DNA of 64,000 nucleotides from a bacterium (GCA_965218795.1 OZ244653.1:4672001-4736000), one strand, 5' to 3'. Shown: positions 6,324-55,879, numbered from the stretch's first letter. A program made the numbers and translations. The notes: a model not told the origin generated them from the letters alone.

Positions 6324-6489
6324 CGGGTCCTCCCGTTCGAGGTTATGTGGATAGCGGCGGTCTTGGCGCCGTTGTGTTGCGATGCGCCGGGCGGGAGGCC
6401 GAGGAAGGCGGGGTCAAGGGCGCGGGACGCCGGGGCCGGAGAGGCTGGCGCCCGCGATGTCTTGAACCGCAACCCCGGAGGAACCACCC

Positions 6490-6858
6490 ATGTCCAATCC
6501 ACCCGACCCATCCAACGGCTGGCGCGCCCGGGCCTTCGTCCTCGGCGGGATCGCACTCGCCCTTGCCGTCACCGTCGTTTCCGTGGCCGCCGGGACCGGT
6601 GTCCGCTTCCTGGGGGGCATCTGGTTCTGGGCGGCGATCTGGACCGTTCTGGCCGGACTCACGTGCACCCTGTGGCGGGGGTTCCGCCATGGGGACTGGT
6701 CCGCCTTCGGCCGCTGCGGGCTCCCGGAAGAGGGCGGTGACCGGTTCGACTGGTCGACCCGGACCGGCCGCTATGCCTGGCTCCGCGATCTCGAGGATCC
6801 ACATCTCCACGACCACGATCCCCTTCGCGGTCATGGCCCCAGCACCTGGTCCCCGTAG
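6490..6858 (+). CDS. Small membrane protein convergent with traG (candidate entry-exclusion factor)
   Basis: GGAGGA RBS upstream of ATG, two hydrophobic helices, and 3' overlap with the end of traG on the opposite strand. Confidence 0.6.
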   Translation: MSNPPDPSNGWRARAFVLGGIALALAVTVVSVAAGTGVRFLGGIWFWAAIWTVLAGLTCTLWRGFRHGDWSAFGRCGLPEEGGDRFDWSTRTGRYAWLRDLEDPHLHDHDPLRGHGPSTWSP

Positions 6859-36308: not shown

Positions 36309-37373
36309 ATGAAAGTTTATGAGCGGCTGATTCGGCCCGCGTTGTTTACGCTCCCCGCGGAAAGGGCTCATGAATTTGCGAAACGCGCCCTCGGAATCGA
36401 AGCCCCTTGGCGACGGCTGGCGGGACGGTTTGAATCCCGCGATCTTCGTCTGGAGACCGAAGTGGCCGGCCTCCGCCAGTCCAGTCCCATTGGCCTGACC
36501 GCGGGATTGGATAAAGACGCCGAGGCATTGCCGGGCCTCTTCCATCTGGGTTTTGGCAGTCTCACCATCGGAACGATGATGCCTCGGGTCAGGAAAGGGA
36601 ACCCCAGACCCCGCATTGTGCGTCTTCCGGATCGGATGGCCGTCATCGATCATATGGGCCTGCCGTCCAAGGGAATCGCGTACGGAGTGGGCCGGTTGAA
36701 ATCATTCCGTGCCCGTCACCCAATCGGTCAGGGACCCCCGGTCATCGTCAGCGTGGGCGGACTCACCATCGATGAAGTCCTGGCGTCCCATCAGGCCGTC
36801 GAGCCGTTGTCAGACGCTGTCGAGTTTGATCTCACCTGCCCAAACGTCACTGAACGGGGAGATTTCGAGACCCTCGAGGGAATGAAGCGATTTGTGGAGC
36901 GACTTGTCGAGGTGCGGAGCAAGCCGTGTTTTTTCCGATTGCCCCTTCGACTCTCGGACGATCACTGGCGCAAGGGCCTTGCCATCACCGAGATCGCTGT
37001 GGAATATGGGGTCGAGGGGGTCACGCCGGCCGGTGGGATTGCCATTGATGATAGCCGGTTGGCGCTGAAAAAGGGCGCATTGGCGGGAAAGCCTCTACTG
37101 GAGAACTCTCTTCAAATCCTGCGGGATTTAAGAAGCGCGTTTGGTCAGGACATTGTGATTCGCATCGCGGGAGGGGCGACGGATGGCAACGCTGTCTTTC
37201 GGATGCTGGAAGCGGGAGCGGACGCCGTGAATGTCTTGACGGCTTTCATCTACCGAGGTCCCGGCGCCGCGGGGGCCATGAATCGGGAGTTGAGTGAAAT
37301 CATGGACGCGGAGGGGGTGGGATCCGTCGGAGAGATTCGCTCCCGGGCGGCCGCCGTCGCGTCCGGCGCTTAG
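36309..37373 (+). CDS. Dihydroorotate dehydrogenase-like FMN enzyme, paralog 1 (divergent active site)
   Basis: Class-2-type N-terminus 'RP.LF.L.AE.AH', 'AGLDKD', 'GNPRPRI.RL', and 'DLTCPNV'. Confidence 0.8.
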   Translation: MKVYERLIRPALFTLPAERAHEFAKRALGIEAPWRRLAGRFESRDLRLETEVAGLRQSSPIGLTAGLDKDAEALPGLFHLGFGSLTIGTMMPRVRKGNPRPRIVRLPDRMAVIDHMGLPSKGIAYGVGRLKSFRARHPIGQGPPVIVSVGGLTIDEVLASHQAVEPLSDAVEFDLTCPNVTERGDFETLEGMKRFVERLVEVRSKPCFFRLPLRLSDDHWRKGLAITEIAVEYGVEGVTPAGGIAIDDSRLALKKGALAGKPLLENSLQILRDLRSAFGQDIVIRIAGGATDGNAVFRMLEAGADAVNVLTAFIYRGPGAAGAMNRELSEIMDAEGVGSVGEIRSRAAAVASGA

Positions 37374-37422: not shown

Positions 37423-38490
37423 GTGAGTCTTTACACTCGGGCGATCCGTCCTGTCCTTTTTACCCTGCCCGCTGAAAGCGCCCATCATCTGGCCAAGCGC
37501 GCGCTTTCCATCGAGTTCCCTTGGCGCATATTCGGTCAACAGTATCAGGTCCTCGATCCACGGCTGGAATGCGAGGTTGCGGGACTCCATCAACGCAGTC
37601 CGTTCGGTCTCACGGCAGGATTCGACAAGGATGCATTGGCTCTTCCCGGACTTTCTCATCTCGGGTTCGGGAGCATCACCGTGGGAGCCATTATGCCGAG
37701 ATTCAGGGAGGGGAATCCGAAACCGCGTTTGGCCCGACGTCCCGCGGATGGCGCGTTGGTCAATTGCATGGGGCTTCCCTCCAAGGGTCTCGACTATGCC
37801 GTTCGCAACCTCCGGCGCTACCGCGCGGTTCATTCCGTTGGCGGCCCGCCGATCATTGCCAACGTCGGCGGGTTCTCCAAAGAGGAAATTCTGTCCACCT
37901 TCAGAGCGAGCGAGCCTTACGTGGACGCTGTCGAGCTGGACCTGACCTGCCCAAATGTGAAGGTGGAAGGGGAAATGGCGAAGATGGACGGCATTCGATC
38001 CGCTATGGACCAGGTCATGGCCGAGCGGACCAAGCCGATTTTCACCAAACTTCCTCTACGTTCCACCGATGAGGACTGGCGGAGGGCGATTGAGATGACC
38101 CATGCCGCGGCTGAAGCGGGACTGGACGGCATTACAGCGGCGGGGAACCTCCGCGTCGAGGACCGGCGGCTTTCGAAGCCTCAGGTATCGTTGACCGGTC
38201 GGCCGTGCTTTGAAAACACGTTGGACATCGTCCGGGAGTTGCGGGCGGCCGCTGGCGAGCGGCTGGCGATTCGGATGGCCGGCGGGGTATCTACGGGCGA
38301 GGATGTCTTTCGCCTGCTTCAGGCCGGCGCGGATGCGGCGAACGTGTTCACGTCTTTTGTGTATCAGGGACCATCGATTGCCGCGCGCGTCAACCATCAA
38401 TTACTCGCGAAGATGGATCAGGAAGGTGTTGGGTCTGTCCACGAGTTGAAAGGACGCCGGTCTCAATCCACAGCGGCTGTATCCGGGTGA
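37423..38490 (+). CDS. Dihydroorotate dehydrogenase-like FMN enzyme, paralog 2
   Basis: Same architecture as paralog 1: 'AGFDKD', 'GNPKPRL', 'NCMGLPS', 'DLTCPNV'. GTG start aligns with paralog 1. Confidence 0.8.
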   Translation: MSLYTRAIRPVLFTLPAESAHHLAKRALSIEFPWRIFGQQYQVLDPRLECEVAGLHQRSPFGLTAGFDKDALALPGLSHLGFGSITVGAIMPRFREGNPKPRLARRPADGALVNCMGLPSKGLDYAVRNLRRYRAVHSVGGPPIIANVGGFSKEEILSTFRASEPYVDAVELDLTCPNVKVEGEMAKMDGIRSAMDQVMAERTKPIFTKLPLRSTDEDWRRAIEMTHAAAEAGLDGITAAGNLRVEDRRLSKPQVSLTGRPCFENTLDIVRELRAAAGERLAIRMAGGVSTGEDVFRLLQAGADAANVFTSFVYQGPSIAARVNHQLLAKMDQEGVGSVHELKGRRSQSTAAVSG

Positions 38491-38590
38491 CGTCCGATCC
38501 CCGCATTTTGATTCCGAAATCATTGAATCTCGAATTTCCTGATTCTTCTGCCTGGGAAAATCCCCTATCAATCTTCGATGAACGCGTTCG

Positions 38591-39325
38591 ATGAATAGAG
38601 ATTTCCTCCAAATCCTGCTTCGATTCTTTCAAGATGTTTCCCCGTTATCTCTCGCCAGATGCTATCCGAAAGGATTGAAAAGAGAGGATGCGGAATTCCT
38701 GCAAAGGCTGGACTTCAAGGGACGTACCGTCTATGACGTCGGAGCCTACAAGGGCTATTACAGTTTATTTTTCGCCCGGGCGGTGGGGTCTCGGGGGCGA
38801 GTGATATCGTTCGAGCCCCATCCCGAAAACTTTCGAAAATTGACGAAGAGGACCAAGTGGAATCTGCTTGACAATGTCGAACTGCGGCAGGTTGCCATAG
38901 GAAAGGAAAGCGGGAGGGGAAATTTGGCTTTTCGGGCCTCCGGTACGGGGACCTCGAGCCTTCAGGAAGGGTTGAGCGCGGATATTTCCCAGGAAGTCGA
39001 CAGCCAGACGGTTCTTGTCGATATGGACTCCCTGGACCACTTGGTATCCGCCTACAGATTGCCGCAACCGGATTTCATCAAGATTGATGTCGAGGGTCTC
39101 GAGATGGAGGCTCTTTCAGGCATGGAAGATACATTGGAGAAGTTCAGGCCGGAACTGCTCATCGAGATTCACGGCGCGGACCTGAAAAGCAGGCTGAGGA
39201 ATGCGGAAGAAGTCGTCGGATTTTTGATCCGTAAGAAATATTCTCTTCATCACGTCGAATCCAATTCGGAAATCACCATCGACAATTTTGAAATTGCAAA
39301 GGAGGGGCATTTGTATTGCTCTTAG
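38591..39325 (+). CDS. FkbM-family methyltransferase
   Basis: 'YDVGAYKG', 'FEP.P.N', 'KIDVEG.E', 'IEIH'. Confidence 0.88.
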   Translation: MNRDFLQILLRFFQDVSPLSLARCYPKGLKREDAEFLQRLDFKGRTVYDVGAYKGYYSLFFARAVGSRGRVISFEPHPENFRKLTKRTKWNLLDNVELRQVAIGKESGRGNLAFRASGTGTSSLQEGLSADISQEVDSQTVLVDMDSLDHLVSAYRLPQPDFIKIDVEGLEMEALSGMEDTLEKFRPELLIEIHGADLKSRLRNAEEVVGFLIRKKYSLHHVESNSEITIDNFEIAKEGHLYCS

Positions 39326-39391
39326 GTTTCAGGGTTCGGATTCCTTCGTCGGCCGGGGGGAACGTTTGGCGATTGAGTTGAAGGTGCATGC

Positions 39392-39424
39392 AAAAAGGGA
39401 GACCCATCTCCGGGCCTCCCTCTT
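39392..39424 (-). terminator. Intrinsic terminator
   Basis: Minus strand reads AGGGAGGCCC-GGAGAT-GGGTCTCCCT followed by a T run, 20 bp after the solute-binding protein stop and between convergent genes. Confidence 0.65.
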
Positions 39425-39444
39425 CTGGAATCATTTTTCAGGTT

Positions 39445-40327
39445 TCAGACCGAAACGCGGACGGTGATTTTCTCGTAGTCCTTTTCCTTCATCTCATCCC
39501 GAAGGCCCCAGGACTCAAGCCAGGCATGGGTCTCTTCATAGAACCCCTTGTCGTACGGCTCGAAGACCAGGAGTTCGCCGAGAGAAAACTTCGAGTAATC
39601 GTAACCTCCCCTCAAATGGGGGGGAATGTTTTTCTCCCACAGCGGCAAGCAGGACGAAGGATTGGCGCGCAGTTCTGCGTCGGCCCTCTGTAGCACCTGA
39701 AAATAGGCGTTCATAACGTTTACGTCCAGGGCGTCACTGACCCAAAACAGCGTTCGGAATTGCCCCTGGGCCAGACGGCGCATTCCCTTCTGTTCGGCCA
39801 TGCTGACTTCGGGGTCCAGGAGGTTGACCGCGTTGATCTCCCCGGATTCCAATGCCTCGAGCCGCTTTCCCGGTCCGCCCAGGTTGAGGATGATGATTTT
39901 GTCCCGAGGGTGAATCATCTCCATCGCTTTCAGAGCCGTGAAGTGGCTCCCCGCCCGGATGCCGACCCCGATGGGAACGCCCCCGAGATCGAGAAGCGAG
40001 CGATAAGGAGAATCCGGACGGACGAAAACGGAGTAGTTGGCCACCCCGTAGAGATCCGGCACGAACTTTCCCATTCCGGCCCCCGCATTGCTCGTCGATC
40101 CCCAGTGGCAGGCGGAATTGACGACTGAGATCCCTTCCATGAACGGACGGTCCTGCGGGCGGTCGTAATAGGCTTTCCCGTCGTGCGTGCTGACGTCATG
40201 CAGCACGCCTTCCAGGTGCTCCGGTTCCAATCCCTCCTCCTGCGTAGGTACCGTTCCGAAGCGCAACCCATTCATGAAGCCGCATGAAATGAGGGACGAC
40301 TTTGATAACCGTCAATTCTGATGCCAT
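39445..40327 (-). pseudogene. NMT1/SsuA-like solute-binding protein with a +1 frameshift at ~40243 (real or sequencing error)
   Basis: N-terminal 'PHFMRLHEWVA...Y' after a GGGAG RBS continues as 'QEEGLE...ACHW...VG..AGSHF' in another frame. Confidence 0.7.
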
Positions 40328-40426
40328 GGTGGTCTCTCCCACCTTGCAAGAAACTCTTTCTTCTAATGGGTTCAATTCGACCGCGGACAAAAAATTCCCC
40401 TTGCTGCCGGACCGCGCGGGTCCGGT

Positions 40427-40921
40427 TCAGCCCGGAGGCGTGGAGGGCGCCGCGAGGTCCCAATCCTGCCAGGCCTTGAACACCTCTTCGGCCCTTTCTT
40501 CCAAAATGCCCCGAATAACCTGAATGTCCAAACCGCTCAGCTCTACCACTCGCTCAATGGTGTAATCTCTCAGGTCATATCGCCCGTTGGAGTGCCTCCG
40601 GAGAGCTTCGGGACCGGCGCCAATGACTACTGTACCGATGCCGGAATAAAGGGCGGCTCCGGCGCACATCGGACAGGGATCGCAGTTGGCGTACATGACG
40701 CAGCCCCGCATGTCGCCCTTGCCCAGATGCTGCGCTGCTTCACGGATGGCGTTCATCTCGGCATGGGCGGTCGGATCCTTCATGGCAATCCCTGTGCTCC
40801 TTCCCTTGCCGATGACCTGCCCGTCCTTCACAATGATGCCCCCGTAGGGCAGGAATCCCGCCCGGACGCCGTCCTCCGCCTCCTGAATGGCCATGGCCAT
40901 GAATTTTTCGTGGTCCGCCAA
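40427..40921 (-). CDS. Zinc-dependent nucleoside/nucleobase deaminase (CDA/TadA/GuaD fold), copy D
   Basis: 'PYG', 'DPTAHAE', 'DPCPMC'. Confidence 0.9.
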   Translation of the reverse strand: MADHEKFMAMAIQEAEDGVRAGFLPYGGIIVKDGQVIGKGRSTGIAMKDPTAHAEMNAIREAAQHLGKGDMRGCVMYANCDPCPMCAGAALYSGIGTVVIGAGPEALRRHSNGRYDLRDYTIERVVELSGLDIQVIRGILEERAEEVFKAWQDWDLAAPSTPPG

Positions 40922-40970
40922 GAGCTTTCGTTCTCCAGGTCTTATGCTCTCATCTGATGAGCGTGGAGGG

Positions 40971-41474
40971 TTACTCGCCGGATCTCAGGACATTCGGAGA
41001 CGCGGTCGACCAGTCCCCATATTCGCGAAAGGCGCGTTCCACCTCTTCTTCAAGAACTTCAGTGACGACCTCCATTTGGAATCCGGTCAACTCCAGCAGG
41101 CGCTCGATGCTGTAGTCCTTCAGGTCATAGGACCCCCCCGATTCACTCCTCAGCGTATCAATGCTGGCCCCGATGACGATGCCTTGAGCCCCGGAAGCCA
41201 CGGTCGCCCATGCGCACATCGGGCAAGGATGGCACGAGGTATATAAAGTGCAGTCGCTGAGTATGGGACCCTTGAGATTAGCCGCCGTGTTCCGAACTGC
41301 CATGGTCTCCGCATGCGCGGTCGGGTCTCCTGTCGAATTGACGATGTTCCGTCCTCTGCCCACGATTTCGCCTTCTCGAACGACGACGGAACCAAACGGC
41401 CGCTCTCCCGATTGGATTGCGCCGCGCATTTCCTCGATGGCCATGGCCATGAATTTTTCGTGTTCACTGCTCAT
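40971..41474 (-). CDS. Zinc-dependent deaminase, copy C
   Basis: 'PFG', 'DPTAHAE', 'HPCPMC'. Start MSSEHEKF follows a GGGAG RBS. Confidence 0.9.
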   Translation of the reverse strand: MSSEHEKFMAMAIEEMRGAIQSGERPFGSVVVREGEIVGRGRNIVNSTGDPTAHAETMAVRNTAANLKGPILSDCTLYTSCHPCPMCAWATVASGAQGIVIGASIDTLRSESGGSYDLKDYSIERLLELTGFQMEVVTEVLEEEVERAFREYGDWSTASPNVLRSGE

Positions 41475-41526
41475 TCTGGCTTTCTCCCGGCTTGGGTCTG
41501 ATATGGAAAGACCTTTCCGACCCGGC

Positions 41527-41600
41527 TGGAGCTTGGACCGGTCATATTCCTCCAAAACCTTTTCTGCTTCATCCTGCAAGACACCCCGGACGACTCCCAA
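41527..41600 (-). pseudogene. 3' remnant of a fifth deaminase copy
   Basis: 'VVRGVLQDEAEKVLEEYDRSKL' matches the C-termini of copies A and B. CAG stands where the paralogs have TAG. Confidence 0.75.
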
Positions 41601-41632
41601 TTCGCCCTCGGCATGTTCGGCGACTGATCCGG

Positions 41633-42100
41633 CTAGAGCGTGGACCAGTCGTATTCCGCGAGGGCCTTTTCGGCATCGTCCTGAAGCACTCCCCGGATCA
41701 CTTCCAGAGGCATATGCATCTGATCGGCGAGGCTTTCAGCCTTGTATGTCCTCGGGGTCTCGGCTCGGATTTCCGCCAATTTCACCGATCGGGCGCCCAC
41801 GACCAATCGATGAATCCCGGAGAACAAGATCGCGCCGGCGCACATGGGACAGGGGTCACAGGACGTGTATAGCGTACACCCGTCCAAACTCGATGAATTC
41901 AGGTTGGCCGCCGCGTCGCGAACCGCGCTGGTCTCCGCATGTGCCGTCGGATCCTCAGAGGAGTTCACCGTGTTGAAGGCCCGCCCAACGATTTCTCCGT
42001 CGCGCACAATCACTGAGCCGAAAGGCTGTTCACCATTCTGGAGTCCCTTACGGGCTTCTTCGATAGCCATAGCCATGAACGTTTCATGTTCGCTGCTCAT
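41633..42100 (-). CDS. Zinc-dependent deaminase, copy B
   Basis: 'PFG', 'DPTAHAE', 'DPCPMC'. Confidence 0.9.
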   Translation of the reverse strand: MSSEHETFMAMAIEEARKGLQNGEQPFGSVIVRDGEIVGRAFNTVNSSEDPTAHAETSAVRDAAANLNSSSLDGCTLYTSCDPCPMCAGAILFSGIHRLVVGARSVKLAEIRAETPRTYKAESLADQMHMPLEVIRGVLQDDAEKALAEYDWSTL

Positions 42101-42145
42101 TCCGTGTTCTCCCCTCGCTCCGAACCCTCCGGCAGAGCGAATCGA

Positions 42146-42616
42146 CTAGATTTTCGACCACCCATATTCCGCAAGCACCTGTTCGGCTTCGTCCTGCAGG
42201 ACGCCCCATATGACTTGCAGGTCCATATTCATCATCTCAGCAAGCCGGTCGGGTCGGTAGGTTCGTTCGCCTGCTTGACCTCTCAGCTTCACCAGGGTTT
42301 GACCGCGTCCGGCGATGACCAGCGTACCGATCCCTGCGTTGAGAATGGAGCCGCAACACATCGGGCACGGTTCACAGGACGTGTAGAGGGTACTGCCCGA
42401 CAGGTTTGGGGTCTTCAACCGTATCGAGGTTTCCCGAACCGCCCTGGTTTCCGCGTGGGCCGTGGGATCGTTCGAGGAGTTGACCGTGTTGTACGCGCTG
42501 CCAATCACCTCGCCGTCCCGAACGATGACGCTTCCGAAAGGAGCTTCCCCTTGACTCAAACCCTTACGGGATTCCTCGATGGCCATGGCCATGAACTTTT
42601 CGTGGTCGTTGCTCAT
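42146..42616 (-). CDS. Zinc-dependent deaminase, copy A
   Basis: 'PFG', 'DPTAHAE', 'EPCPMC'. ATG overlaps the LLM stop codon (ATGA). Confidence 0.9.
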   Translation of the reverse strand: MSNDHEKFMAMAIEESRKGLSQGEAPFGSVIVRDGEVIGSAYNTVNSSNDPTAHAETRAVRETSIRLKTPNLSGSTLYTSCEPCPMCCGSILNAGIGTLVIAGRGQTLVKLRGQAGERTYRPDRLAEMMNMDLQVIWGVLQDEAEQVLAEYGWSKI

Positions 42617-43626
42617 CTTGAAGCTCCTTGGGTGCGATTCCATTGTGCCGCCAGAAGACTCAGGGCGTGTTTTCGGCTCTCCGGAGATCCTCGAAGGGCC
42701 AGTATGGGAATTTCGAGTCCTGTCTTGACGTATTCGGAGATGCGATCGGTGGCCATCTCCGGTGTGCCCGTTACAGTAAAGGCATGAACGATCTCCTCCG
42801 GCAAGAGGCGCCGCATGGCCGTCCAGTCTTCCTTGACGAGTGCTTCGTTGACCGCGTCGATGTCAAGATGCACGCCGGTCAATTCAAGATTCGTCCGTAA
42901 GCCGGGATTTCGGAGCAGATACCCGAGCCCCTTCTGGGCTTCCAGGAGAGCGTCTTCGTAACTCTCGGAAATGGTTGTCATGATCAGACTAGCGTATGTG
43001 AAATGACCTTCCGTGTTGCCGCCGTCCTTTCGGCCGCTCTCGGTTTGTTGCATGGCCCACTCGATGTACTGAGGCGATACGGCCGCGGAGAAGACGACCC
43101 CGTCGGAAACTTCTCCAGCGAGCCGGCACATTCTTTCACCGATGGCCGCCAGATAGATGGGAATGGGCGGCCCCGGAATCTCGAAATCGATGTGGGCCCC
43201 TTTGAGGCTCAAAGTCTCGCCGGTGAATTCCACTCGATCCCTTTTTGCCTCCCAAAGCCGCCGTATCGAACGAATCATGTCACGCATATGGGCCAGAGGT
43301 CTTTTCAAGGAGATTCCCATCTCCCCCATTACCTGCTCATTGGCTGTCCCGGCGCAGAGGGCCGTGCGGCCGGGGGCGTACTCGGCCAGCGTGGCGATTC
43401 CCATCGCCCAAAAGAGTGGATGAGCTACGTAGGGACTCAAGGCGGTGGGAACGATATGCGCGTTTCTCGTTGCCGCCAGGAAGGCAATCGACGAAGAAAC
43501 AGCATCCCGGTACCCCAAGTGCTGATCGGCCCAGATCGAATGAAATCCCGCATCGTCAGCCATCCGGCACATGTCGATCATGTCGGCCAGCGAGATGCGT
43601 CCGTCCAGATCGATTCCCAGTTTCAT
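42613..43626 (-). CDS. LLM-class flavin (possibly F420)-dependent oxidoreductase
   Basis: 'GFHSIWADQH', 'SPY..HP...A..IATL', 'PIYLAA.G..M..LAGE..DGV', 'GTPE'. Confidence 0.88.
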   Translation of the reverse strand: MKLGIDLDGRISLADMIDMCRMADDAGFHSIWADQHLGYRDAVSSSIAFLAATRNAHIVPTALSPYVAHPLFWAMGIATLAEYAPGRTALCAGTANEQVMGEMGISLKRPLAHMRDMIRSIRRLWEAKRDRVEFTGETLSLKGAHIDFEIPGPPIPIYLAAIGERMCRLAGEVSDGVVFSAAVSPQYIEWAMQQTESGRKDGGNTEGHFTYASLIMTTISESYEDALLEAQKGLGYLLRNPGLRTNLELTGVHLDIDAVNEALVKEDWTAMRRLLPEEIVHAFTVTGTPEMATDRISEYVKTGLEIPILALRGSPESRKHALSLLAAQWNRTQGASR

Positions 43627-44056
43627 CGAAAGCCCTTGGCCGGGGGTGGGGTGAGATCTGGCGACTAGTGTAGCCGTTCTTGTGCCGACATCCAAAAAGA
43701 ATTTTGTCGAAGCGGCGTTCCTGAGTATGCAGACCGAATCAGATCATCTCTCGACTCGAATTCGGAGCGTTGAAATGTGCAAATCGTCTGCCGGAATCAG
43801 AAGGGTGAATTCTTTCGGGCAGAGCGGAAAGGAGCTTGCGATTGACGCGGAGACGTTGAATCGGGGAGCCAAAAACCGGAAGCCTGGATATCACACCTCT
43901 CCATACGGCATCATTGAGGATGTTTCCCTCTGCTTTCTCAGGGGCTGATCCGGTTGCTCCTCCCTCGAGTGGACGGGAAAACACCGTTCACGGGGTCTGG
44001 CTTCCGGGTTTGGTCAGGGAAGGGACGTGACTCGCCGGGCAGAACCGGATTTTTCT

Positions 44057-44941
44057 TTACGTTTCTATCTTCCACAGCCGCGCCGTGTTCCGCCACATGA
44101 TCCTTTCCATGTCCTCATCCGAGATGGGCTCGAGGCCCAGCCGCTCGGCTTCATCCTTCAAGCCGAGCATCAGCTCGACGGCCATATGGGTGTGAGAATT
44201 CTCGGAGCCGAAGAGGAGTTTGTCATACCCGCAGAGCCGGCCGAACCGCTGAATCGCGCGGAGGTTCTCCTCCGGAGTAAACCAGCCCCAGTACGCCATG
44301 TCGGCGTGGATATTGTCGTACTTCGCGATAAGAGCCATGCACTCGTCCACCCACGGCCATCCCAAATGGGCCACGACGATCTTGAGTTCCGGATAGCGGT
44401 ATGCAACGTCATCGAGAAGATAGGGTTGCTGATACTTCAACGGGGCGTTGAGGCAGGGCGTCCACCCCATGTGGCACTGCATCGGGATGTCCAGCTCGAT
44501 GATCTTCTCGTAGACGGGGAAAAGGCGCTCGTCACGCGGGTCGAAGTGATCATAGGAGGGGTAGAGCTTGACCGCGTCCATCCCCAAATCCTTGATGCAG
44601 CGCTCGATTTCATGGATCGATTCGAAAATGTCCCGAAACGGATCGACGCTGCACGTCATGGCGAACCGCTCCGGGGAGACGGCCTTGACTTCCAGGAGGA
44701 AGTCATTCGGGCAGAAGGGGCCTTTCCGATCCGGATACACCCTGCGGTGGTCGGACGTCATGACGCACATCTTGTCGATTCCGTGCTCGTCCATGGTCTG
44801 AACCATGCGCTCGCCCACAGAGAGATCCGGCTCTCCCCCCCATCGGCGCACGCCCCCCCAGGCCCGGTAGAGCTCCTTCACCCACCATTCCGGATAATGC
44901 TCGTGAAGCTTCCCCACGTGAACGTGACAGTCGATAATCAT
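44057..44941 (-). CDS. Amidohydrolase-2 family protein
   Basis: 'IIDCHVH', 'KLYP', 'HMG', 'AHLG.PW', 'LFGSE'. Confidence 0.88.
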   Translation of the reverse strand: MIIDCHVHVGKLHEHYPEWWVKELYRAWGGVRRWGGEPDLSVGERMVQTMDEHGIDKMCVMTSDHRRVYPDRKGPFCPNDFLLEVKAVSPERFAMTCSVDPFRDIFESIHEIERCIKDLGMDAVKLYPSYDHFDPRDERLFPVYEKIIELDIPMQCHMGWTPCLNAPLKYQQPYLLDDVAYRYPELKIVVAHLGWPWVDECMALIAKYDNIHADMAYWGWFTPEENLRAIQRFGRLCGYDKLLFGSENSHTHMAVELMLGLKDEAERLGLEPISDEDMERIMWRNTARLWKIET

Positions 44942-45075
44942 GGGTGTCCTCCTGTGAAGGGGAGCTTTCCTCATTCAAGCCCGATCCTTCCGACGAAGGG
45001 TCTGAGCGGATCCCGGGACGCGCATTCCCGCGATATCGTCAATGAGAGGGCGCAGGGAATTGAGGACTCCCCAGC

Positions 45076-47385
45076 CTACCCGTTGGATTCGGCTTCCTTC
45101 GCCCGAATGGCCTGGAGCAGTTCCTGGGGGCGGATGGGTACCTTGTGGCAGCGGACGCCCACGGCGTTGTGAATGGCGTTCGCGATCGCCGCGGCAACCG
45201 GGTTCACAGGCCCTTCGGAACAGCCCTTTGCCCCGAGTGGACCGAGTGGGTCGTCCGACTCGATGAACTCGTGGCGGATGGGCGGCATGGCTTCGGCCTT
45301 GGGGACGGCGTAATCGGCCAAGTTGCCGTTCAGCGGCTGGCCGTTCTCGAACACCATGTCTTCGAAATAAGCCCACCCCAGTCCCTGGGAAACGGCCCCT
45401 TCCGTCTGGCCTTCCGCTCCGAGAGCGGAGATGACTCGTCCCACGTCGTCTACGGTGACGAATTCCAGAATATCCACCTGCCCGGTTTCCGTATCCACTT
45501 CGACCTCGGCGATCTGAGCTACGAATTCGTAGCCGGGGGCCACGTTGCCGTCCAGAAGCGGCGGCCGGACGATTTCGTTCTCGGCCTCGTAATGACCGAC
45601 GGCCATGACCGGTCCTCCGTCACCCGCAAGACGCTCTTTGTGAGCGGCTTCGCCAATGCTCATGCCCCGATCGGGGGAGCCCTTGACGAAAATCCGGCCT
45701 CCTTCAAAGACGAGGTCATCGGGGTCCGCCTCGAGCTCGTTGGACACGACCGCGGCGAGCTTTTTCTTCAGGTCCACCGCCGCCTTGTGAACGGCGTTCC
45801 CGCCAACCATCGTGATCCGGCTCGCAAAGGAACCGAGGGTGTAGGGGGCGACGTCGGTGTCCGGCGCGCACATGTCGATGTCGGTGATATCCACGCCGAG
45901 CTCCTCCGCGGCGAACATGCTGAGGACCGTCGGCGCCCCCTGTCCGTTGTCCCCTTCGCCGATGAGCAGGCCGATCCGGCCGTCGTCATGCGCATGAAGA
46001 ATGGCAGTCGACCCCTCCCAACCGGCGATCAGGCGGTTGCCGCTCACGTGGTTGGCGCAGGCCAGTCCGATTCCCCGCCGCCGGGTTCCGGACTCGCCCT
46101 GACGGGTTTCCTCCCGCTTGCGTTTCCAGTCGGTCATCTCGACCGCCCGCTCGATACATTCGGGCAGCGCGTTCGTTATGGCGTTCCACTTGTGAATCGA
46201 GAGTTCGCCCGGCTCGAGAGCGTTGTGGAGCCGCAGGTCCGGCGGATCCATTCCCAATGTCTCGGCGAGCATATCCATCATGATCTCACCGGGAACCGTC
46301 GTTTGAGGTGTTCCGAATCCGCGAAACGCTCCTTTGGGGGGATTGTTGGTGTACACCAATCGGGCCTTCACCCCGCAGGCCTTCCACCGGTACAGCGACG
46401 GCCAACGGGTCACCATCGTATTGACGATGCCCGGCGAGGGTCCGGCGTATCCGCCGCATTCCGCGACCAGATCGAGGGCGTGCGCCGTGAGTGTCCCGTC
46501 TTTCATGGCACCGATCTTCAGCCGTACCCTGGCGGGGACCCGCATTCGCGTCGCGCCCCGAAAAGATTCGGTTCGAAGGTTTTCCAGCTTGACCGGCCGA
46601 CCGGCCTTCAGGGCGAGCAGACCGCTGATGAAGGCATTCGGATCGTCGATTGATTTTCCGCCGAACGCCCCTCCCACGTAAGGCTGTATCAGCCGAACCC
46701 TAGAAGTATCCAGCCCCAGGCCCATGGCGATTCTGTCCCGGCCAAGGAAGACTTTCTGGCAAGGGACGTACATGACCAGCTTGCTTCCATCGGTCGGGTC
46801 GGCGACTGTGCAATTGGGCTCGGTGAAAGCGTGATATTGGGTCCTGACTTCGAATTCTTCTTCCAGAATGACATCGGAGGACGTAAAGGCCGCCTCCAGA
46901 TCCCCGCCTTTCTGGAAGTCCAATTCGTGGCAGAGATTGTTCGGGGCGTCGTCATGAATCAGAACGGCGCCATCGGACATCGCGTCTTCGGGAGAGAAGT
47001 AGGCGGGAAGGACTTCATATTCCACATGGATGCGATCAACGGCCTCCTCGGCGGCCTCCCGGGACGCGGCGGCCACTGCCGCGACCTCGTGACCGATAAA
47101 GCGCGCCCTGTCGATGGCGAGAGCTGTCTGATCTTTCCGCATCGTGCCGTAGCCTGCTCCCGGAGGAATGTCTTGACCCGTCACGATTGTTTTGACGCCG
47201 GGCATCTTCAGGGCTTGGGAGGTGTCGACCCGCAGGATTCGCGCATGAGGATGTACGCTGCGTAAGACCTTCCCGTGGAGCAAACCGGGGAACTTCATAT
47301 CCGTAGCGAACCTGGCCTGCCCCGAGACCTTCACCGGGGACCCGATCATCGGTGCGCGTGATCCGATTACCTTGAACGAGCTCAT
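45076..47385 (-). CDS. Xanthine dehydrogenase-family molybdopterin-binding subunit
   Basis: 'RS.HPHARI', 'GGAFGGK', 'AFRGFG', 'GQG', 'DTD', 'GAKG.SE'. Confidence 0.92.
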   Translation of the reverse strand: MSSFKVIGSRAPMIGSPVKVSGQARFATDMKFPGLLHGKVLRSVHPHARILRVDTSQALKMPGVKTIVTGQDIPPGAGYGTMRKDQTALAIDRARFIGHEVAAVAAASREAAEEAVDRIHVEYEVLPAYFSPEDAMSDGAVLIHDDAPNNLCHELDFQKGGDLEAAFTSSDVILEEEFEVRTQYHAFTEPNCTVADPTDGSKLVMYVPCQKVFLGRDRIAMGLGLDTSRVRLIQPYVGGAFGGKSIDDPNAFISGLLALKAGRPVKLENLRTESFRGATRMRVPARVRLKIGAMKDGTLTAHALDLVAECGGYAGPSPGIVNTMVTRWPSLYRWKACGVKARLVYTNNPPKGAFRGFGTPQTTVPGEIMMDMLAETLGMDPPDLRLHNALEPGELSIHKWNAITNALPECIERAVEMTDWKRKREETRQGESGTRRRGIGLACANHVSGNRLIAGWEGSTAILHAHDDGRIGLLIGEGDNGQGAPTVLSMFAAEELGVDITDIDMCAPDTDVAPYTLGSFASRITMVGGNAVHKAAVDLKKKLAAVVSNELEADPDDLVFEGGRIFVKGSPDRGMSIGEAAHKERLAGDGGPVMAVGHYEAENEIVRPPLLDGNVAPGYEFVAQIAEVEVDTETGQVDILEFVTVDDVGRVISALGAEGQTEGAVSQGLGWAYFEDMVFENGQPLNGNLADYAVPKAEAMPPIRHEFIESDDPLGPLGAKGCSEGPVNPVAAAIANAIHNAVGVRCHKVPIRPQELLQAIRAKEAESNG

Positions 47386-47539
47386 CCATTCACTCCTGCG
47401 AAGCACAGGTGATGTAACGGTTTCCGTGAAAATACGGGAACCGTCATGCCTTGAGCACCTGTTACGTAACCGTTCGGAAAGCTTCCCCGTATCGCCAATG
47501 GCTTCTTCATGAAAACATATCACCGAATCGAGCGGCCAC

Positions 47540-48419
47540 TCAACTCTTTATCAAAGTAATCAGGGCGATGCCGGCAACGACGGAAACAGTGCCGATGTAC
47601 GTTCTTGCCGTGATCTTCTCCAGCGTCTCTCAAAAAGAGCGCCGCCATGGAGATCGATAACAGAGGTGTCGCACCGAGAATCGCCATCACCCGCGAGACC
47701 TGCCCGAGAGAAATGGCGGAGAAGAGAAAAAACAATGTGACGGCGAGGCTGATCCCTGCAAGGAGAAAGAACCGGAAGGCCCTGGCAGAGCGCACCAGCC
47801 GCCTGCCTTTCGGAAAAATTCCGTACGTCAGGGCGAGAACAACCAATGCCGAGAATGTGGAAATCAAAATGGCGACGTGAGGGAGGGGGATCATCGACAA
47901 TCCGATCTTCCGGATAATGCCCGCCAGACCCCAGAAAAATCCCGCGCCCAGCGGCAGGATCGCATCTCTCCACCGCAGCGGAGCCTGCCCCTTTGGGCGC
48001 ATGATCACCCAGATGCCCCCGACGATGAGAACGGTGCCGATGTACATCGTCCAATGCGGCCGCTCGCCCAAGAGCGCGACACCGAGCAGAACCGAGAAGA
48101 GCGGATTCGAGCCCATCCCCATGGGGGCCGCCCGCCCGACCCCCAAGCGGCTCAAGGCGATGTAGTACAGCGTCATGGAAAGGGCCGGGGAGCTGAGCCC
48201 TCCCAACAGAAACCACAGGACGCCGGTCCGCGGCAAATCCATCCACCGAACGCCGAGGGCCGCGCAAACCCCCGCATAGGCCATCAGGACGGTCAGGTTG
48301 ATAATCACCGCCGCCATGTAGGGTGAGCCGGTCTGCAGCCCTTGCCGGTTCAGGATGCTCATCGTCGACATAGTGAAAACGGCGAGAAGGGCGAGAAGGT
48401 CAACGGGTATGGCTTGCAA
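47540..48419 (-). pseudogene. DMT/EamA transporter with a +1 frameshift at ~47624 near the C-terminus (real or sequencing error)
   Basis: Two EamA repeats. Removing one base gives 'DLEKITARTYIGTVSVVAGIALITLIKS*', matching the adjacent paralog. Confidence 0.8.
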
Positions 48420-48561
48420 ATTCGGGCTTTTCCGATTGAGGAGGAAGGCTTTTACCCGGGAAACCTTGAATCGCAACGTGTACAGGGGCTCAGTTCAATC
48501 CCCGCCTTGCGGCAAAGTCAGCAAACACTCCGGGGCGCGTCTGTTTTGAGGGGGAAGGCGG

Positions 48562-49449
48562 CTAACCCTTGAGCAATGTAATGGTGGCAACCCCTATCAC
48601 GATGGTGACCGTCCCGCCGTAGGTTCTGCCGGTCACTTTCTCCAGGTCGCCGAGGAATAGGGCCGCCAAGGTGATGGTGCAGAGAGGGATGATCCCCATG
48701 ATGGCCATCACCCTGGAGACCTGACCAAGGGCGAGGCCGGAGAAAAGGAAGTAAAGGGTGATGGCAAAGGCGAGGCCCGCGTACAAGGAGAATTTTACGG
48801 CCCGCCAGGATCGCACGATTCGTCTCTTTTTCGGAAAAAACCCGTATGTCAGAGCCAGGAATGCCAGCGCCGTTGTCGAGGAGATCACTAGGCCAACCTG
48901 AGGTACCGGTATGTATGACAATCCGATCTTCCGAAAAACGGAAGCCAGTCCCCAGAAAAATCCGGCGGTCAAAGGAATCAGTGATTCCCTCCATTTCAAG
49001 GGCGGTTGGTCTTTCGGTCTTGTAATCACCCAAATCCCGCCGATGATCAGGACCGTACCGACGTATAAAGACCAAGAAGGCCGCTCACCCAGGAGGATGA
49101 CGGCCAGCGCGACGGAGGAGAGCGGATTTGCGCCCATCGCGATAGGAGCGGCTTGTGCCACGCCAAACCTGCTCAGCGCATAGTAGTAGATCGTCATCGA
49201 TAGAGCGGGTGAACTGATACCGGCCACCAGGAACCACATGACTCCGGTCGGCGGAAGTTCCGTCCAAGGGGTTCCCACTACGGTACAAGCGATGAAGTAG
49301 AAGAAGAAAACCGTTGCATTGATAATGACCGCCGCCATGTAGGGCGAACCCGTCCGCAGCCCCTGACGGTTCAGGATGCTCATGCTGGACATTGTGAGTG
49401 CGGCGAGAAGCGCGATGATATCGACGGGGATGGCTTGGATGAAGGGCAA
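48562..49449 (-). CDS. DMT/EamA transporter
   Basis: About 10 TM helices, 'LLGERP', and close similarity to the neighbouring gene. Confidence 0.88.
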   Translation of the reverse strand: MPFIQAIPVDIIALLAALTMSSMSILNRQGLRTGSPYMAAVIINATVFFFYFIACTVVGTPWTELPPTGVMWFLVAGISSPALSMTIYYYALSRFGVAQAAPIAMGANPLSSVALAVILLGERPSWSLYVGTVLIIGGIWVITRPKDQPPLKWRESLIPLTAGFFWGLASVFRKIGLSYIPVPQVGLVISSTTALAFLALTYGFFPKKRRIVRSWRAVKFSLYAGLAFAITLYFLFSGLALGQVSRVMAIMGIIPLCTITLAALFLGDLEKVTGRTYGGTVTIVIGVATITLLKG

Positions 49450-49635
49450 GGGGGAGTTTTCCCTTCAGGCGGGCGTCGGATGCCGGCCGTTCGGCGGAAT
49501 GGCGATTGCGATCGAACCGGCAGTTAAGCCTTCGGAGGAGAGAAAGTCAATTGCGGCGCGATGGGATCTTGTTCCAGCGTGCGGATCCATTTTCCACGGA
49601 TCCGCCATCAAGAGAGTCATCCAGGTGTCGTCACG

Positions 49636-50112
49636 TCAGGGATTCTGGAGCGCGGCCGTCTCCGGAGTCATCATCCAGGCGATTCGCCAACCTTGATGGG
49701 GATCACCTTCCAGGCAAACCGCCGTCACCTCCCTGAATGAAATGATGTCCCACGCCTCACTGCCCATCACCAACAGAGAGACCAGCTTGGACAGGAAAGG
49801 CAGATGGCCGATAATCATTCGGTCCTCGCTCGATTGGGCCACCTCGTCGGCAATGGGAACGACAGGGTCCATAGGCGCCAGCCCCTTTCGTTCCATGACT
49901 CCGGTTGCAGAATGGACGGAGGAACCCAGGAGATTCGCTGTCTGGACCGCTCTAAGCTTGTCGCTGTGCCAGACGGCGCCGACGGAGATCCCCTTTGCCT
50001 TCAGGAACCGGGCCATCACTTCAGCTTGCTCCCGGCCTTTTGTCGAGAGAGGACGCCGGGGGTCTTGTTCTTCCGGCAAGGCCTCGCCATGTCGAACCAG
50101 GTAAATGCGCAT
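49636..50112 (-). CDS. sixA: Phosphohistidine phosphatase SixA
   Basis: 'MRIYLVRHGEA', 'RPLS..G', 'RAVQTA', 'GHLP'. Confidence 0.9.
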   Translation of the reverse strand: MRIYLVRHGEALPEEQDPRRPLSTKGREQAEVMARFLKAKGISVGAVWHSDKLRAVQTANLLGSSVHSATGVMERKGLAPMDPVVPIADEVAQSSEDRMIIGHLPFLSKLVSLLVMGSEAWDIISFREVTAVCLEGDPHQGWRIAWMMTPETAALQNP

Positions 50113-50275
50113 CAATGGATTCCTTAGAGCGCTGGGTGATTCTGGCCAATTTTGAAACTTCGATGTATTGTAATGGGAATTCCAATCAAAATCCGAATGT
50201 AACTCGAACGATCGGAAGACCGGGATGTTTTCGAACACCTTGGCGGACCTTTGAATATGAAAGGAGGGTGAGGCA

Positions 50276-51349
50276 TTGAGCGAAGGGAGCGATGTGATTG
50301 CCGAAGTGATGGAAAGCAGCAAGGGACGGATGATCGGGGACGGGTTGGAAGCCGCCGACATCGACGAGATCCTGGAGCGGTGTTCGGGCTGGGGGGACTG
50401 GTATGAAGTGGTCACCGGCATCGGGGACCGATACGAACAGATGGCTGAAGAGAGGCTCTCCAATGGATACAGCATTTCGGCGGGCGTATACCTCTGGCGG
50501 GCCTGCATGTATTACCACTATGCACAGTTTTACATGTTTGAGCGTCCCGACTTGAGGGAGGCCGGTCAGAAGAAGAAGGTCGATCTTTACCAGCGCGCCG
50601 CGCCCCTTTTTTTCCCGCCGGCGGAACGCGTCGACATTCCGTTCGAAGGATTCACCATTCCCGGCTATTTTCGAAAACCCCGCGGCGTTGAAAACCCTCC
50701 CTGCGCCGTCTTGATCGGAGGCCTCGAGAGCACCAAGGAGGAAAGCTACCTGTTCGAGCATATGTGCCACGACCGGGGGATGGCGACCTTCGCCTTTGAC
50801 GGACCCGGACAGGGCGAGATGTTCTTCCAGACGAGGATCCGTCCCGATTTTGAGCGGTTCACCTCTGCGGTGCTGGATTACCTGGAGACCCGGAGCGACA
50901 TCGACACATCCAAGTTCGGCGTTCTGGGTAGAAGCTTTGGGGGTTATTACGGGCCCAGAAGCGCCGCCCACGACAAACGAATCGTCGTCTGTGTCTGCTG
51001 GGGAGTCCTGTACGAGCTCCAAACGTATTGGTGGGACATGCACGATCTCACGCGCAATGGGTTTACCTATTGCGCAGGGGAAACGGATCCCGAGAAGGGG
51101 AAAGAGACGCTGAAGTTCATCGACCTCTCCGATTGCTCGGACAAGATTAGCTGCGCACTGTATCTTCAGCACGGAATGAAAGACGACTTGATTCCCTTCA
51201 ACCAGGCCGCCCGGCTGGAAAAAGAAGCCGTGAACGCGAAGGAGATTGTGACCCAGTATGAACCCGAGGGGATTCACTGCTGCCACAACCTCTATCACGT
51301 GACGCGGCTGCCCATGGCTGACTACTTGGCCAAACACCTGGTCGGCTGA
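50276..51349 (+). CDS. Alpha/beta hydrolase, 2,6-dihydroxypseudooxynicotine hydrolase-like
   Basis: 'GGLESTKEE', 'DGPGQGE', nucleophile 'GRSFGGYY', and 'G.HCCHN'. Confidence 0.82.
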   Translation: MSEGSDVIAEVMESSKGRMIGDGLEAADIDEILERCSGWGDWYEVVTGIGDRYEQMAEERLSNGYSISAGVYLWRACMYYHYAQFYMFERPDLREAGQKKKVDLYQRAAPLFFPPAERVDIPFEGFTIPGYFRKPRGVENPPCAVLIGGLESTKEESYLFEHMCHDRGMATFAFDGPGQGEMFFQTRIRPDFERFTSAVLDYLETRSDIDTSKFGVLGRSFGGYYGPRSAAHDKRIVVCVCWGVLYELQTYWWDMHDLTRNGFTYCAGETDPEKGKETLKFIDLSDCSDKISCALYLQHGMKDDLIPFNQAARLEKEAVNAKEIVTQYEPEGIHCCHNLYHVTRLPMADYLAKHLVG

Positions 51350-54963: not shown

Positions 54964-55800
54964 TCAGGTCGCCCTGGGGTATTTGCGTTTCTCTGCAGGC
55001 CGATGCTTGCGTAGCGTTTCGATGAATTCGACTCCGTTATCAATGATTGCCTGCCACAGTTTCTCGCCCTTTTCCACTGTGGCGACGGTCGGGTCGCCAA
55101 TGTGAGATGGAGGGGTATAGAAGCTCTGATCGTCTGCCGTAATCGTGATGGGGATCCTGTCACCGGTGGCGAAGTGGTCATGGGAGAAGAATCGCGTTTC
55201 AAAGTGGAGATTGCCCCGGTGCTCAAAGGCCTTGTCCATTTGCACCAGTTCGGGGCGCCTGAAAAGCATGTGGGACGTCTCGAACTCTCCGCCATGCTGT
55301 CCTGCGCCGGGATTTTCGCAAACCTCTCTGTGGGTTGAAGATGCGATGATCAGAGGGTCGTATAAAGCAAACAAGACCTCCGGATGCTCTTGTTTGACGG
55401 TCTTGCTCGCAATCCCGATCACAGCGACGTTGGCCAGCCGGTGACCGTTGAACGTGATGATATTTTTGAATCCATGTTTGATGAGACTGCGGTAGATATC
55501 CTTGAGGAGATGAACCACCGTTTCCGGCTGAAGTGAGATTCCCGGTTTGTGCATGTGATGCTGAGCGTCTCCAAACCAATTCGGGGGCGTGCACAGGACA
55601 CCCGCCGCCTCCGCAATCCCTTCCGAGTAATCAATGGCCTCGAATCCGTCGACCCCGATGGGAAGATGCGGACCGTGCGGCTCGGTACTTCCGATGGGGA
55701 CGACAACGATGTCTTCCTGCTCCAGGTATTCGGCAATCTCCTCCCACGTCAGATCCTGCATCCAAATGGATTTGAGTTTCTTCTTGCGCGCGGCAGCCAT
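54964..55800 (-). CDS. Creatininase-family amidohydrolase
   Basis: 'PIGSTEPHGPHLP.G.D', 'NGH..N', 'HGGEFETS', 'GDP..AT.EKGE'. Confidence 0.9.
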   Translation of the reverse strand: MAAARKKKLKSIWMQDLTWEEIAEYLEQEDIVVVPIGSTEPHGPHLPIGVDGFEAIDYSEGIAEAAGVLCTPPNWFGDAQHHMHKPGISLQPETVVHLLKDIYRSLIKHGFKNIITFNGHRLANVAVIGIASKTVKQEHPEVLFALYDPLIIASSTHREVCENPGAGQHGGEFETSHMLFRRPELVQMDKAFEHRGNLHFETRFFSHDHFATGDRIPITITADDQSFYTPPSHIGDPTVATVEKGEKLWQAIIDNGVEFIETLRKHRPAEKRKYPRAT

Positions 55801-55879
55801 TCGTTCTTTCCCCCTTTGCGGCAAAAGGCGTCCCAGTCGTTGAGTGGGTAGAAGGCAGGCGGGCCCAAGGACTCGGACT

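Follow-up and report, generated by a model that had tools for sequence, protein, structure and literature searches.

Why should a bacterium keep four related deaminase genes in a row behind a single oxidoreductase gene? The question is raised by a stretch of 64,000 nucleotides from a bacterial genome (GCA_965218795.1, OZ244653.1:4672001-4736000), which is called the window below and is numbered from its first letter. All genes under study lie on its minus strand, where a first-pass annotation made from the sequence had placed them and where the open reading frame (ORF) map of the window puts them. They comprise a gene for an oxidoreductase of the luciferase-like monooxygenase (LLM) family and four genes for deaminases of the cytidine deaminase (CDA) fold, which we call D1 to D4. 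We found that they belong to a conserved unit in which one Mer-like LLM is translationally coupled to three to five paralogous deaminases. The reading that we favour, with a probability of about 50%, is that the deaminases are specialised for particular positions or substrates among small molecules and are coupled to an F420-dependent reductase in the catabolism of N-heterocycles or guanidines. The core of the locus is composed as follows:

42613..43626, minus strand: LLM-family oxidoreductase, Mer-like F420 type, 337 amino acids (Pfam Bac_luciferase, PF00296, E 9e-50)
42146..42616, minus strand: deaminase D1, C-E-P-C class (Pfam dCMP_cyt_deam_1); its start overlaps the LLM stop
41633..42100, minus strand: deaminase D2, C-D-P-C class (Pfam dCMP_cyt_deam_1)
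41529..41594, minus strand: relic of 22 codons, the C-terminus of a lost fifth deaminase copy (local alignment)
40971..41474, minus strand: deaminase D3, C-H-P-C class (Pfam dCMP_cyt_deam_1)
40427..40921, minus strand: deaminase D4, C-D-P-C class, with P-Y-G-G and a Ser that replaces the pocket Asn (Pfam dCMP_cyt_deam_1)

The first two genes share the tetranucleotide ATGA at 42616-42613, in which the LLM stop overlaps the D1 start, and the translational coupling proposed in the first-pass annotation is borne out by this overlap. Behind D1 the genes of the array are separated by 45 (D1-D2), 158 (D2-D3) and 49 bases (D3-D4).

The linkage is not peculiar to this genome (G000). An ortholog of the LLM gene (58-86% identity) was present in four of six other genomes of the family, and in each of these four the deaminase genes stand directly behind it, so the LLM-deaminase synteny on which the annotation had built is conserved wherever the ortholog occurs. 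G001 belongs to the same genus and the others are further relatives from the family:

G001: LLM-D1-D2-D3-D4
G004: LLM-D2-D2b-D3-D4, two occurrences
G006: LLM-D2-D3-D4
G003: LLM, then a D3-like gene at the contig end

Across the genomes the array comprises three to five deaminases. The LLM orthologs all start with MKLGIDLD. A second LLM paralog of G003 (58% identity) had no deaminase in its 4-kb locus. None of 44 genomes searched from other families of the phylum contained an LLM ortholog; two of them possessed LLM homologs (37-38% identity), which had no deaminase gene nearer than 1.5 kb. A scan of genome contigs with the LLM alignment, which used very narrow patterns, returned nothing beyond the four known loci. 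In a metagenome scan with the deaminase alignment none of the at least 80 listed generic relatives (36-59% identity) was LLM-bearing and one carried two adjacent deaminase matches; these matches do not bear on the environmental D2-like clade described below. The two occurrences in G004 are located on contigs C5 and C7 and gave nearly identical matches, with DDE transposase genes about 5 kb away on C5; they arose by segmental duplication, or else two strains were assembled together. Another family of the class also has two related deaminases in tandem (G014:C1:563099-566515); these share 43-50% identity with D3, and their 3.4-kb locus contains no LLM.

One-to-one orthologs could be assigned for D2, D3 and D4 across two genera and for D1 inside the genus. 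The D1 ortholog of G001 is 86-87% identical, with a ratio of nonsynonymous to synonymous divergence (dN/dS) of 0.04. In G001, G004 and G006 the D2 orthologs are 72-77% and the D3 orthologs about 71% identical, the latter with a dN/dS of 0.05-0.18. The D4 orthologs are 76-80% identical. By the Nei-Gojobori method the ratios were 0.04-0.15 between G000 and G001, where dS is near saturation and the value for D4 was not computable, and 0.10-0.25 in the unsaturated comparison of G004 with G006. The dS between paralogs is saturated. Since the ratios between orthologs are 0.04-0.25 while the paralogs are saturated, the copies must be old and functional, and their coding sequences indicate that D1 to D4 are diverged genes under purifying selection. 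Inactive recent duplicates, which the annotation had kept in mind, would not give such values.

The relic between D2 and D3 shows that the array has not been static. Its counterpart in D1, D2 and D2b-class proteins is the stretch of 22 residues at the C-terminal end (BLOSUM62 scores of the local alignments 66-79), although a conserved Trp has been replaced, and the relic is frame-continuous with the D3 ORF, so that it reads as an N-terminal extension of D3. Because G004 has an intact extra copy, D2b, at the very position of the relic, the array has evidently both gained and lost copies.

D1 to D4 are 42-61% identical to each other and match PF00383 (dCMP_cyt_deam_1) with 84-100 bits against a cut-off of 25 bits (E 1e-24 to 1e-29). 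H-A-E and P-C-x-x-C are invariant in the four proteins, and H54, E56, C84 and C87 are 100% conserved in every class. Pfam, alignment and coordinates thus agree with the original description of four co-oriented deaminases carrying both motifs. Because the zinc ligands and the proton-shuttle Glu are kept, hydrolytic deamination would be expected of each copy.

What distinguishes the copies can be seen in an alignment of 67 labelled sequences, in which several positions (given in D2 numbering) are constant inside a class and different between classes. Position 27 is F in most classes and Y in D4. Position 43 is N in D2 and D3, A in D2b and S in D4, and it is mixed in D1. At position 82, the residue before PC, the annotation had correctly read E, D, H and D for D1, D2, D3 and D4; the His is present in 90% of the D3 class. 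Position 93 is N, F, Y and Y by class, as against W in the GuaD-like rows, and position 136 is W, R, T and R. The C-terminal tail Y-x-(D)-W is also among the class-fixed differences, and here too the earlier readings were accurate. D2 and D3 retain both the P-F-G motif and the pocket Asn; D4 and D2b lack the Asn. The GuaD-like rows have an F-D-D segment and a terminal Tyr which the D classes do not conserve; in the latter, D-D reads E-R, P-R, L-N and L-R. Positions 27 and 43, the neighbourhood of 82, position 93 and the tail presumably line the substrate pocket, by homology with the structures of GuaD and yeast cytosine deaminase. The suggestion that the copies differ around the pocket and the C-terminal lid therefore stands, with differences that are class-fixed in the tail and at the positions taken to line the pocket. 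Because these residues differ between classes and are fixed within them, the targets may well be class-specific.

The relationship of the array to known deaminases was analysed in a quick IQ-TREE phylogeny of 140 rows, made up of 15 array proteins from four genomes, six other paralogs of this genome and 119 homologs (the best 120 listed matches minus P0160, which at 101 amino acids was dropped for length). Since similarity to D2 decided which homologs entered, D3 and D4 are sampled too thinly. The array proteins formed a 95-row clade with about 80 environmental sequences (SH-aLRT 97), nested in a 107-row clade (SH-aLRT 92) which adds four further paralogs of this genome. This in turn was sister to a 17-row clade (SH-aLRT 98) containing three proteins which JGI names guanine deaminase (P0150, P0157 and P0176); the label 'GuaD-like' rests on these names and on GuaD motifs. 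Both the 107-row clade and the GuaD-like clade were apart from the TadA rows. D1 and D4 each formed a single sub-clade (SH-aLRT 100), the D3-class rows were split over several supported groups, and the D2 and D2b rows fell inside a 77-row clade (SH-aLRT 99). A tree with TadA, GuaD, NE0047 and Msd had been proposed with the annotation. In the present one, unnamed or source-named homologs stand in for TadA and GuaD, the four reference sequences lying outside it, and with these stand-ins the D proteins form a group of their own beside the GuaD-like rows and not within them.

The D2 protein, the sole deaminase modelled, gave an AlphaFold model with a pLDDT of 96.6 (86-row alignment). The modelled fold is certainly of the CDA type. 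In Foldseek it matched TadA, the plant guanosine deaminase GSDA and NE0047 with a TMq of 0.82-0.84, and it does not tell TadA from the other two; the best match was the TadA structure 2b3j (TMq 0.83, E 2e-15), and NE0047 also gave 0.83. In sequence the best PDB matches were the Arabidopsis guanosine deaminase, the guanine deaminase of B. subtilis and TadA (E about 1e-26). Alignments to these relatives mostly end near residue 106-120, those to guanine deaminase near 93-120. With B. subtilis GuaD and GSDA the D proteins have in common the fold, the zinc/Glu chemistry, P-F-G and D-P-T-A-H-A-E, and the GuaD-like clade is their sister. In contrast, the C-terminal third cannot be aligned, the D classes have a Y119 loop and a Y-x-D-W tail, positions 43, 82 and 93 vary, and four to five paralogs stand in an operon with an LLM instead of a single gene. 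Yeast cytosine deaminase, Msd and NE0047 are small-molecule deaminases whose C-terminal tail, aromatic or acidic, shuts the pocket. D4 aligns with yeast cytosine deaminase over nearly its full length, but as sequence matches the three are far weaker (E 5e-13 for yeast cytosine deaminase and Msd, 4e-11 for NE0047).

TadA deserves separate mention, since relatives of the D proteins are automatically named TadA and the topology of the C-terminal strand and helix is similar. On the TadA equivalog model NF008113 (cut-off 150 bits) D1 to D4 reach only 73-91 bits, whereas a separate gene at 3.49 Mb of the genome scores 174 bits. The sub-cut-off scores, the separate clade and the presence of this other gene rule out D1 to D4 as TadA. 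Isoelectric points did not separate D1 to D4 from TadA or from GuaD-like proteins. A role in anti-phage defence found no support either. PADLOC matched a dCTPase model of 630 positions (E 1e-7 to 4e-4), but these matches, like those to defence models in NCBIfam, extend over about 45 residues around the zinc motif; no full-length model matched and no partner genes were seen. The annotation's judgement that an editing role is the less likely alternative is in line with these results.

The LLM protein points to F420 as cofactor. Its 14 best NCBIfam matches are all F420-type models, and the first FMN class follows at E 2e-10. Best among them are the Mer models NF002619 (162 bits, cut-off 276) and TIGR03555 (138 bits, cut-off 349), and in the PDB it is Mer structures that match best (1z69, E 1e-39, aligned over the full length); Adf, Fgd and fHMAD were matched as well. 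It differs from Mer in scoring far under the equivalog cut-offs, so that it does not qualify as a Mer equivalog, and in having deaminases instead of C1-pathway genes as partners; it reaches no subfamily cut-off either. The F420 biosynthesis genes for which the annotation had suggested a search are present in one cluster at 3.263-3.268 Mb: cofD (330 bits), cofH (435 bits) and cofE (282 bits) all exceed the curated cut-offs, and a second, weaker match to the cofH model lies beside cofH. The LLM is accordingly a predicted F420 enzyme by its relatives, and from the synteny we infer that it would act on the same molecules as the deaminases.

The genes on either side of this core, with the features that end the run, are the following:

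47520-48476 and 48562-49449, minus strand: two EamA (DMT) permeases (Pfam EamA)
45076..47523, minus strand: molybdenum hydroxylase large subunit, xanthine dehydrogenase family (Pfam MoCoBD_1, MoCoBD_2 and Ald_Xan_dh_C)
44057..44974, minus strand: Amidohydro_2 protein, upstream context (Pfam E 3e-37)
39445..40327 (ORF 39445-40275), minus strand: SsuA/NMT1-fold protein, frameshifted near 40243 (fold match)
39398..39411, minus strand: weak terminator-like hairpin past the last gene, with a 5-pair stem and a T-rich tail

The Amidohydro_2 gene is separated from the LLM gene by about 430 bases. Among solved structures its product comes closest to 4-oxalomesaconate hydratase and to decarboxylases (E 4e-11 at best), and the gene has no match in the G001 locus. 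The molybdenum hydroxylase subunit remains under every NCBIfam equivalog cut-off; its G001 copy is 86% identical and adjoins the LLM gene. None of the 28 Fer2_2 genes of the genome, which would provide the Fe-S subunit, lies inside the window. Both EamA permeases are kept upstream in G001 (73-77% identical). A promoter scan of the region gave one site, not above shuffles, and an alignment of five genomes upstream of the LLM gene had only a Shine-Dalgarno-like G-rich stretch in common. On the other side of the run, tandem paralogs resembling class-2 dihydroorotate dehydrogenase (36309-37373 and 37426-38490, plus strand, both under the equivalog cut-offs) are followed by an FkbM methyltransferase gene; these three genes are convergent with the deaminase operon and their adjacency is kept in G001 only.

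Relatives of the array occur in similar company elsewhere in the genome, which shows expansions of several families: 43 LLM, 28 Fer2_2 small-subunit and 11 CDA-family matches, about nine of the last from one subfamily. A second locus (C1:3240300-3254700) combines on one strand a deaminase of the same subfamily, a protein of the amidinotransferase/ADI fold and an F420-type LLM; its neighbours are an NMT1 protein, two Amidohydro_1 genes and a molybdenum hydroxylase FAD subunit, and it lies about 15 kb from the F420 cluster. Another paralog at 1.93 Mb adjoins a creatininase-family gene (6077-6901 of that locus, minus strand). Because the paralogs recur among amidohydrolase, NMT1 and molybdenum hydroxylase genes, a metabolic role on small molecules gains support. 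Two further subfamily copies, at C1:4483500-4497800 and C1:3102000-3116400, are degenerate. In one the zinc His is replaced and PCxxC contains an extra residue; the other has H-G-E and S-P-C-Q-M-C, and its similarity to the family is lost soon after in frame. They are surrounded by amidohydrolases, an NMT1 protein (one copy), a PnrA-type ABC system and a molybdenum hydroxylase subunit. Creatininase-family genes were found both in the window (54964-55914, minus strand) and beside the 1.93 Mb paralog, each under the creatininase cut-off.

The run had been described as closed by a binding protein and a terminator, and of this description the SsuA/NMT1 fold was confirmed. This copy of the last gene has no Pfam match, but NMT1 (PF09084) is matched by 24 of 38 aligned members of its family, which counts 444 representatives at E <= 0.001. 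A model of the protein (pLDDT 91.5) had SsuA as its best Foldseek match (3ksj, E 2e-9, TMq 0.62). SsuA, TauA and ThiY were found at E 2e-9 to 3e-7 with a TMq of about 0.6, as expected of a class II binding-protein fold, and the cytosolic enzymes DszB and Thi5 were matched as well. A hydrophobic leader resembling a signal peptide was not seen by eye in the protein or in six full-length relatives, and no ABC genes are present in 34000-57800. The protein would therefore be a cytoplasmic one, as far as a leader judged by eye can tell. An almost invariant Cys and Trp (A-C-x-W-G) are present in the family, and this protein may function in catalysis, as DszB and Thi5 do, rather than in transport.

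The last gene appears to be interrupted in this assembly. The family N-terminus is encoded upstream in another frame, with the true start at the ATG at 40327, and a 90-97% identical relative from a DNA run is one base shorter at 40243, a difference that would bring the two frames together; from these two observations we conclude that the gene is frameshifted here, by assembly error or by decay. The gene has no match in the loci taken from G001, G004 and G006. The terminator also carries little weight, because such sites are no commoner than in shuffled sequence (9 hairpin-type sites in the region against 6.2 +/- 2.9). As the last gene is missing from the loci of three relatives and frameshifted in this genome, it does not define the unit, nor does the terminator.

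Sequences related to the window were found in sequencing runs. A DNA run labelled sponge metagenome contained the 90-97% identical relative in 29 of 30 bins, among them those of the Amidohydro_2 gene and of the last gene. Four small contigs, three with at least 99% identity, came from a metatranscriptome that bears this label too; the D1-D2 spacer is bridged by one of them (42019-42231), and another falls within the LLM gene. In a second run, guessed to be RNA, contigs covered D4, the LLM and the molybdenum hydroxylase, and one further run guessed to be RNA had no contigs on the window. Stretches without RNA contigs do not indicate silence.

How might such a unit work? From the evidence above we infer small-molecule substrates, a division of labour among the copies and a catabolic direction. 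Each deaminase would exchange an exocyclic or amidine-type NH2 group for O, with release of ammonia, and D1, D2, D2b, D3 and D4 would most likely differ in the amino position that they attack or in the member of a compound group that they accept. Candidate substrates are purine-, pyrimidine-, pterin- or triazine-like rings and cyclic or acyclic guanidines; tRNA or DNA is unlikely. The LLM would most likely draw on F420H2 for the reduction of a C=N or C=C bond, either in these compounds themselves or in the products of their deamination. The EamA permeases present in this genus might import the ring and the molybdenum hydroxylase subunit might take part in its hydroxylation. The pay-off would probably be nitrogen scavenging or detoxification, and the substrate is possibly host-derived, because runs labelled sponge metagenome contain the locus. 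A wide small-molecule range of the fold is shown by BguH, a 'nucleoside deaminase' homolog of a metformin-degrading Pseudomonas, which according to passages of PMC11647477 releases ammonia from biguanide for nitrogen supply. BguH is likened to the D proteins by this description and not by sequence, as a CDA-type fold with a guanidine instead of a nucleobase as substrate; as described there it is a single plasmid gene with no LLM partner. A diversified deaminase set for modified nucleobases or other amino-heterocycles had been suggested at the outset. The diversification proved right, the copies being diverged, old and class-fixed, and the proposed substrates are among the candidates. A more elaborate scheme is an assembly line in which a single poly-amino heterocycle or guanidine would lose its amino or imino groups one by one, each to another class of deaminase, after which the LLM would reduce the ring with F420H2; this is a tentative idea and on the doubtful side.

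Several observations weigh against specialised small-molecule deaminases working with an F420-dependent reductase. The LLM is the sole neighbour conserved across genera while the other flanks vary between genomes, and the module of permeases and molybdenum hydroxylase accompanies the unit in this genus only (here and in G001). With 43 LLM matches in the genome, an LLM near any given gene is not rare. The model for npdG, the F420:NADPH oxidoreductase, found no match in the genome. No regulator was recognised near the cluster, and an Rfam scan of 38500-50500 (E <= 1) revealed no riboswitch or other family. A search of longer proteins for fusions gave two unrelated tandem-deaminase fusions, none informative. 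Foldseek places TadA structures level with small-molecule deaminases, so that the fold is compatible with an RNA substrate. The pocket positions were mapped through homology with GuaD and yeast cytosine deaminase and not on coordinates. The RNA evidence consists of contigs, which possibly derive from contaminating DNA.

It might be thought that the paralogs are subunits of one hetero-oligomeric deaminase, similar to ADAT2/ADAT3 except that all subunits would be active. The solved relatives are dimers with active sites bordering the interface, gene order is conserved, and a second tandem pair of the subfamily exists in another family of the class. However, a fixed stoichiometric complex fits poorly, because copy number and class make-up vary (D1-D2-D3-D4, D2-D2b-D3-D4, D2-D3-D4 and a dead fifth copy), and every copy has the full catalytic set; we regard such a complex as rather unlikely. 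The array could also consist of redundant guanine or guanosine deaminases, kept for dosage or as isozymes in purine salvage. Guanosine deaminase and the guanine deaminase of B. subtilis are indeed among the best solved matches (E about 1e-26), D2 and D3 have P-F-G and the pocket Asn, and a subunit of the xanthine dehydrogenase family is adjacent. Yet the alignments to guanine deaminase stop near residue 93-120, the GuaD-like F-D-D segment and terminal Tyr are not conserved, D4 and D2b are without the pocket Asn, and the D clade lies outside the GuaD-like clade. Since the pocket changes are class-fixed, and the class-specific residues have been conserved despite saturated dS between the paralogs, redundancy is unlikely.

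Alternatively, the unit might be biosynthetic or cofactor-related, and the F420 LLM would then be the tailoring reductase for a natural product of the pterin, deazaflavin or nucleoside-like kind. That F420-dependent LLMs serve antibiotic biosynthesis is stated in passages of a 2021 review (PMC8498797). The nearest solved relatives of our LLM bind a pterin substrate, and an FkbM methyltransferase adjoins the cluster both here and in G001. Against this, no genes of a biosynthetic core were seen within 10 kb, and the methyltransferase gene is convergent and without a match in the loci of G004 and G006. The neighbours are permeases and a molybdenum hydroxylase, and the other paralogs lie among amidohydrolases and transporters. 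A biosynthetic function is unlikely. A role of the deaminases on nucleic acids or nucleotides, be it editing, depletion of nucleotides or phage defence, is very improbable indeed. TadA structures do top the Foldseek list and there are weak matches to models of anti-phage dCTP deaminases, but the latter are the short zinc-motif matches mentioned above, toxin, immunity or sensor partners are absent, the genome has its separate TadA and the neighbours are metabolic.

In the open-access literature searched by keyword we found no description of an operon combining an LLM with a deaminase array. According to passages of the same review (PMC8498797), no experimental study has dealt with the physiological role of F420 outside Actinobacteria and methanogens, and the unit described here could provide such a role. 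If each class of deaminase does strip its own group from one compound before reduction by the LLM, N-heterocycles would be broken down along an F420-dependent route not described before, and F420 would gain its first physiological role in this bacterial group. Should the substrates be host-derived, the unit would also have a bearing on nitrogen recycling in animal-associated bacteria. CDA-fold proteins annotated as 'nucleoside deaminase' or 'TadA' form a large pool of unassigned small-molecule deaminases. The practical value of the finding would lie in enzyme discovery rather than in a new principle: four to five specialised deaminases beside one F420-type reductase would be a compact and tractable set in which to look for new specificities.

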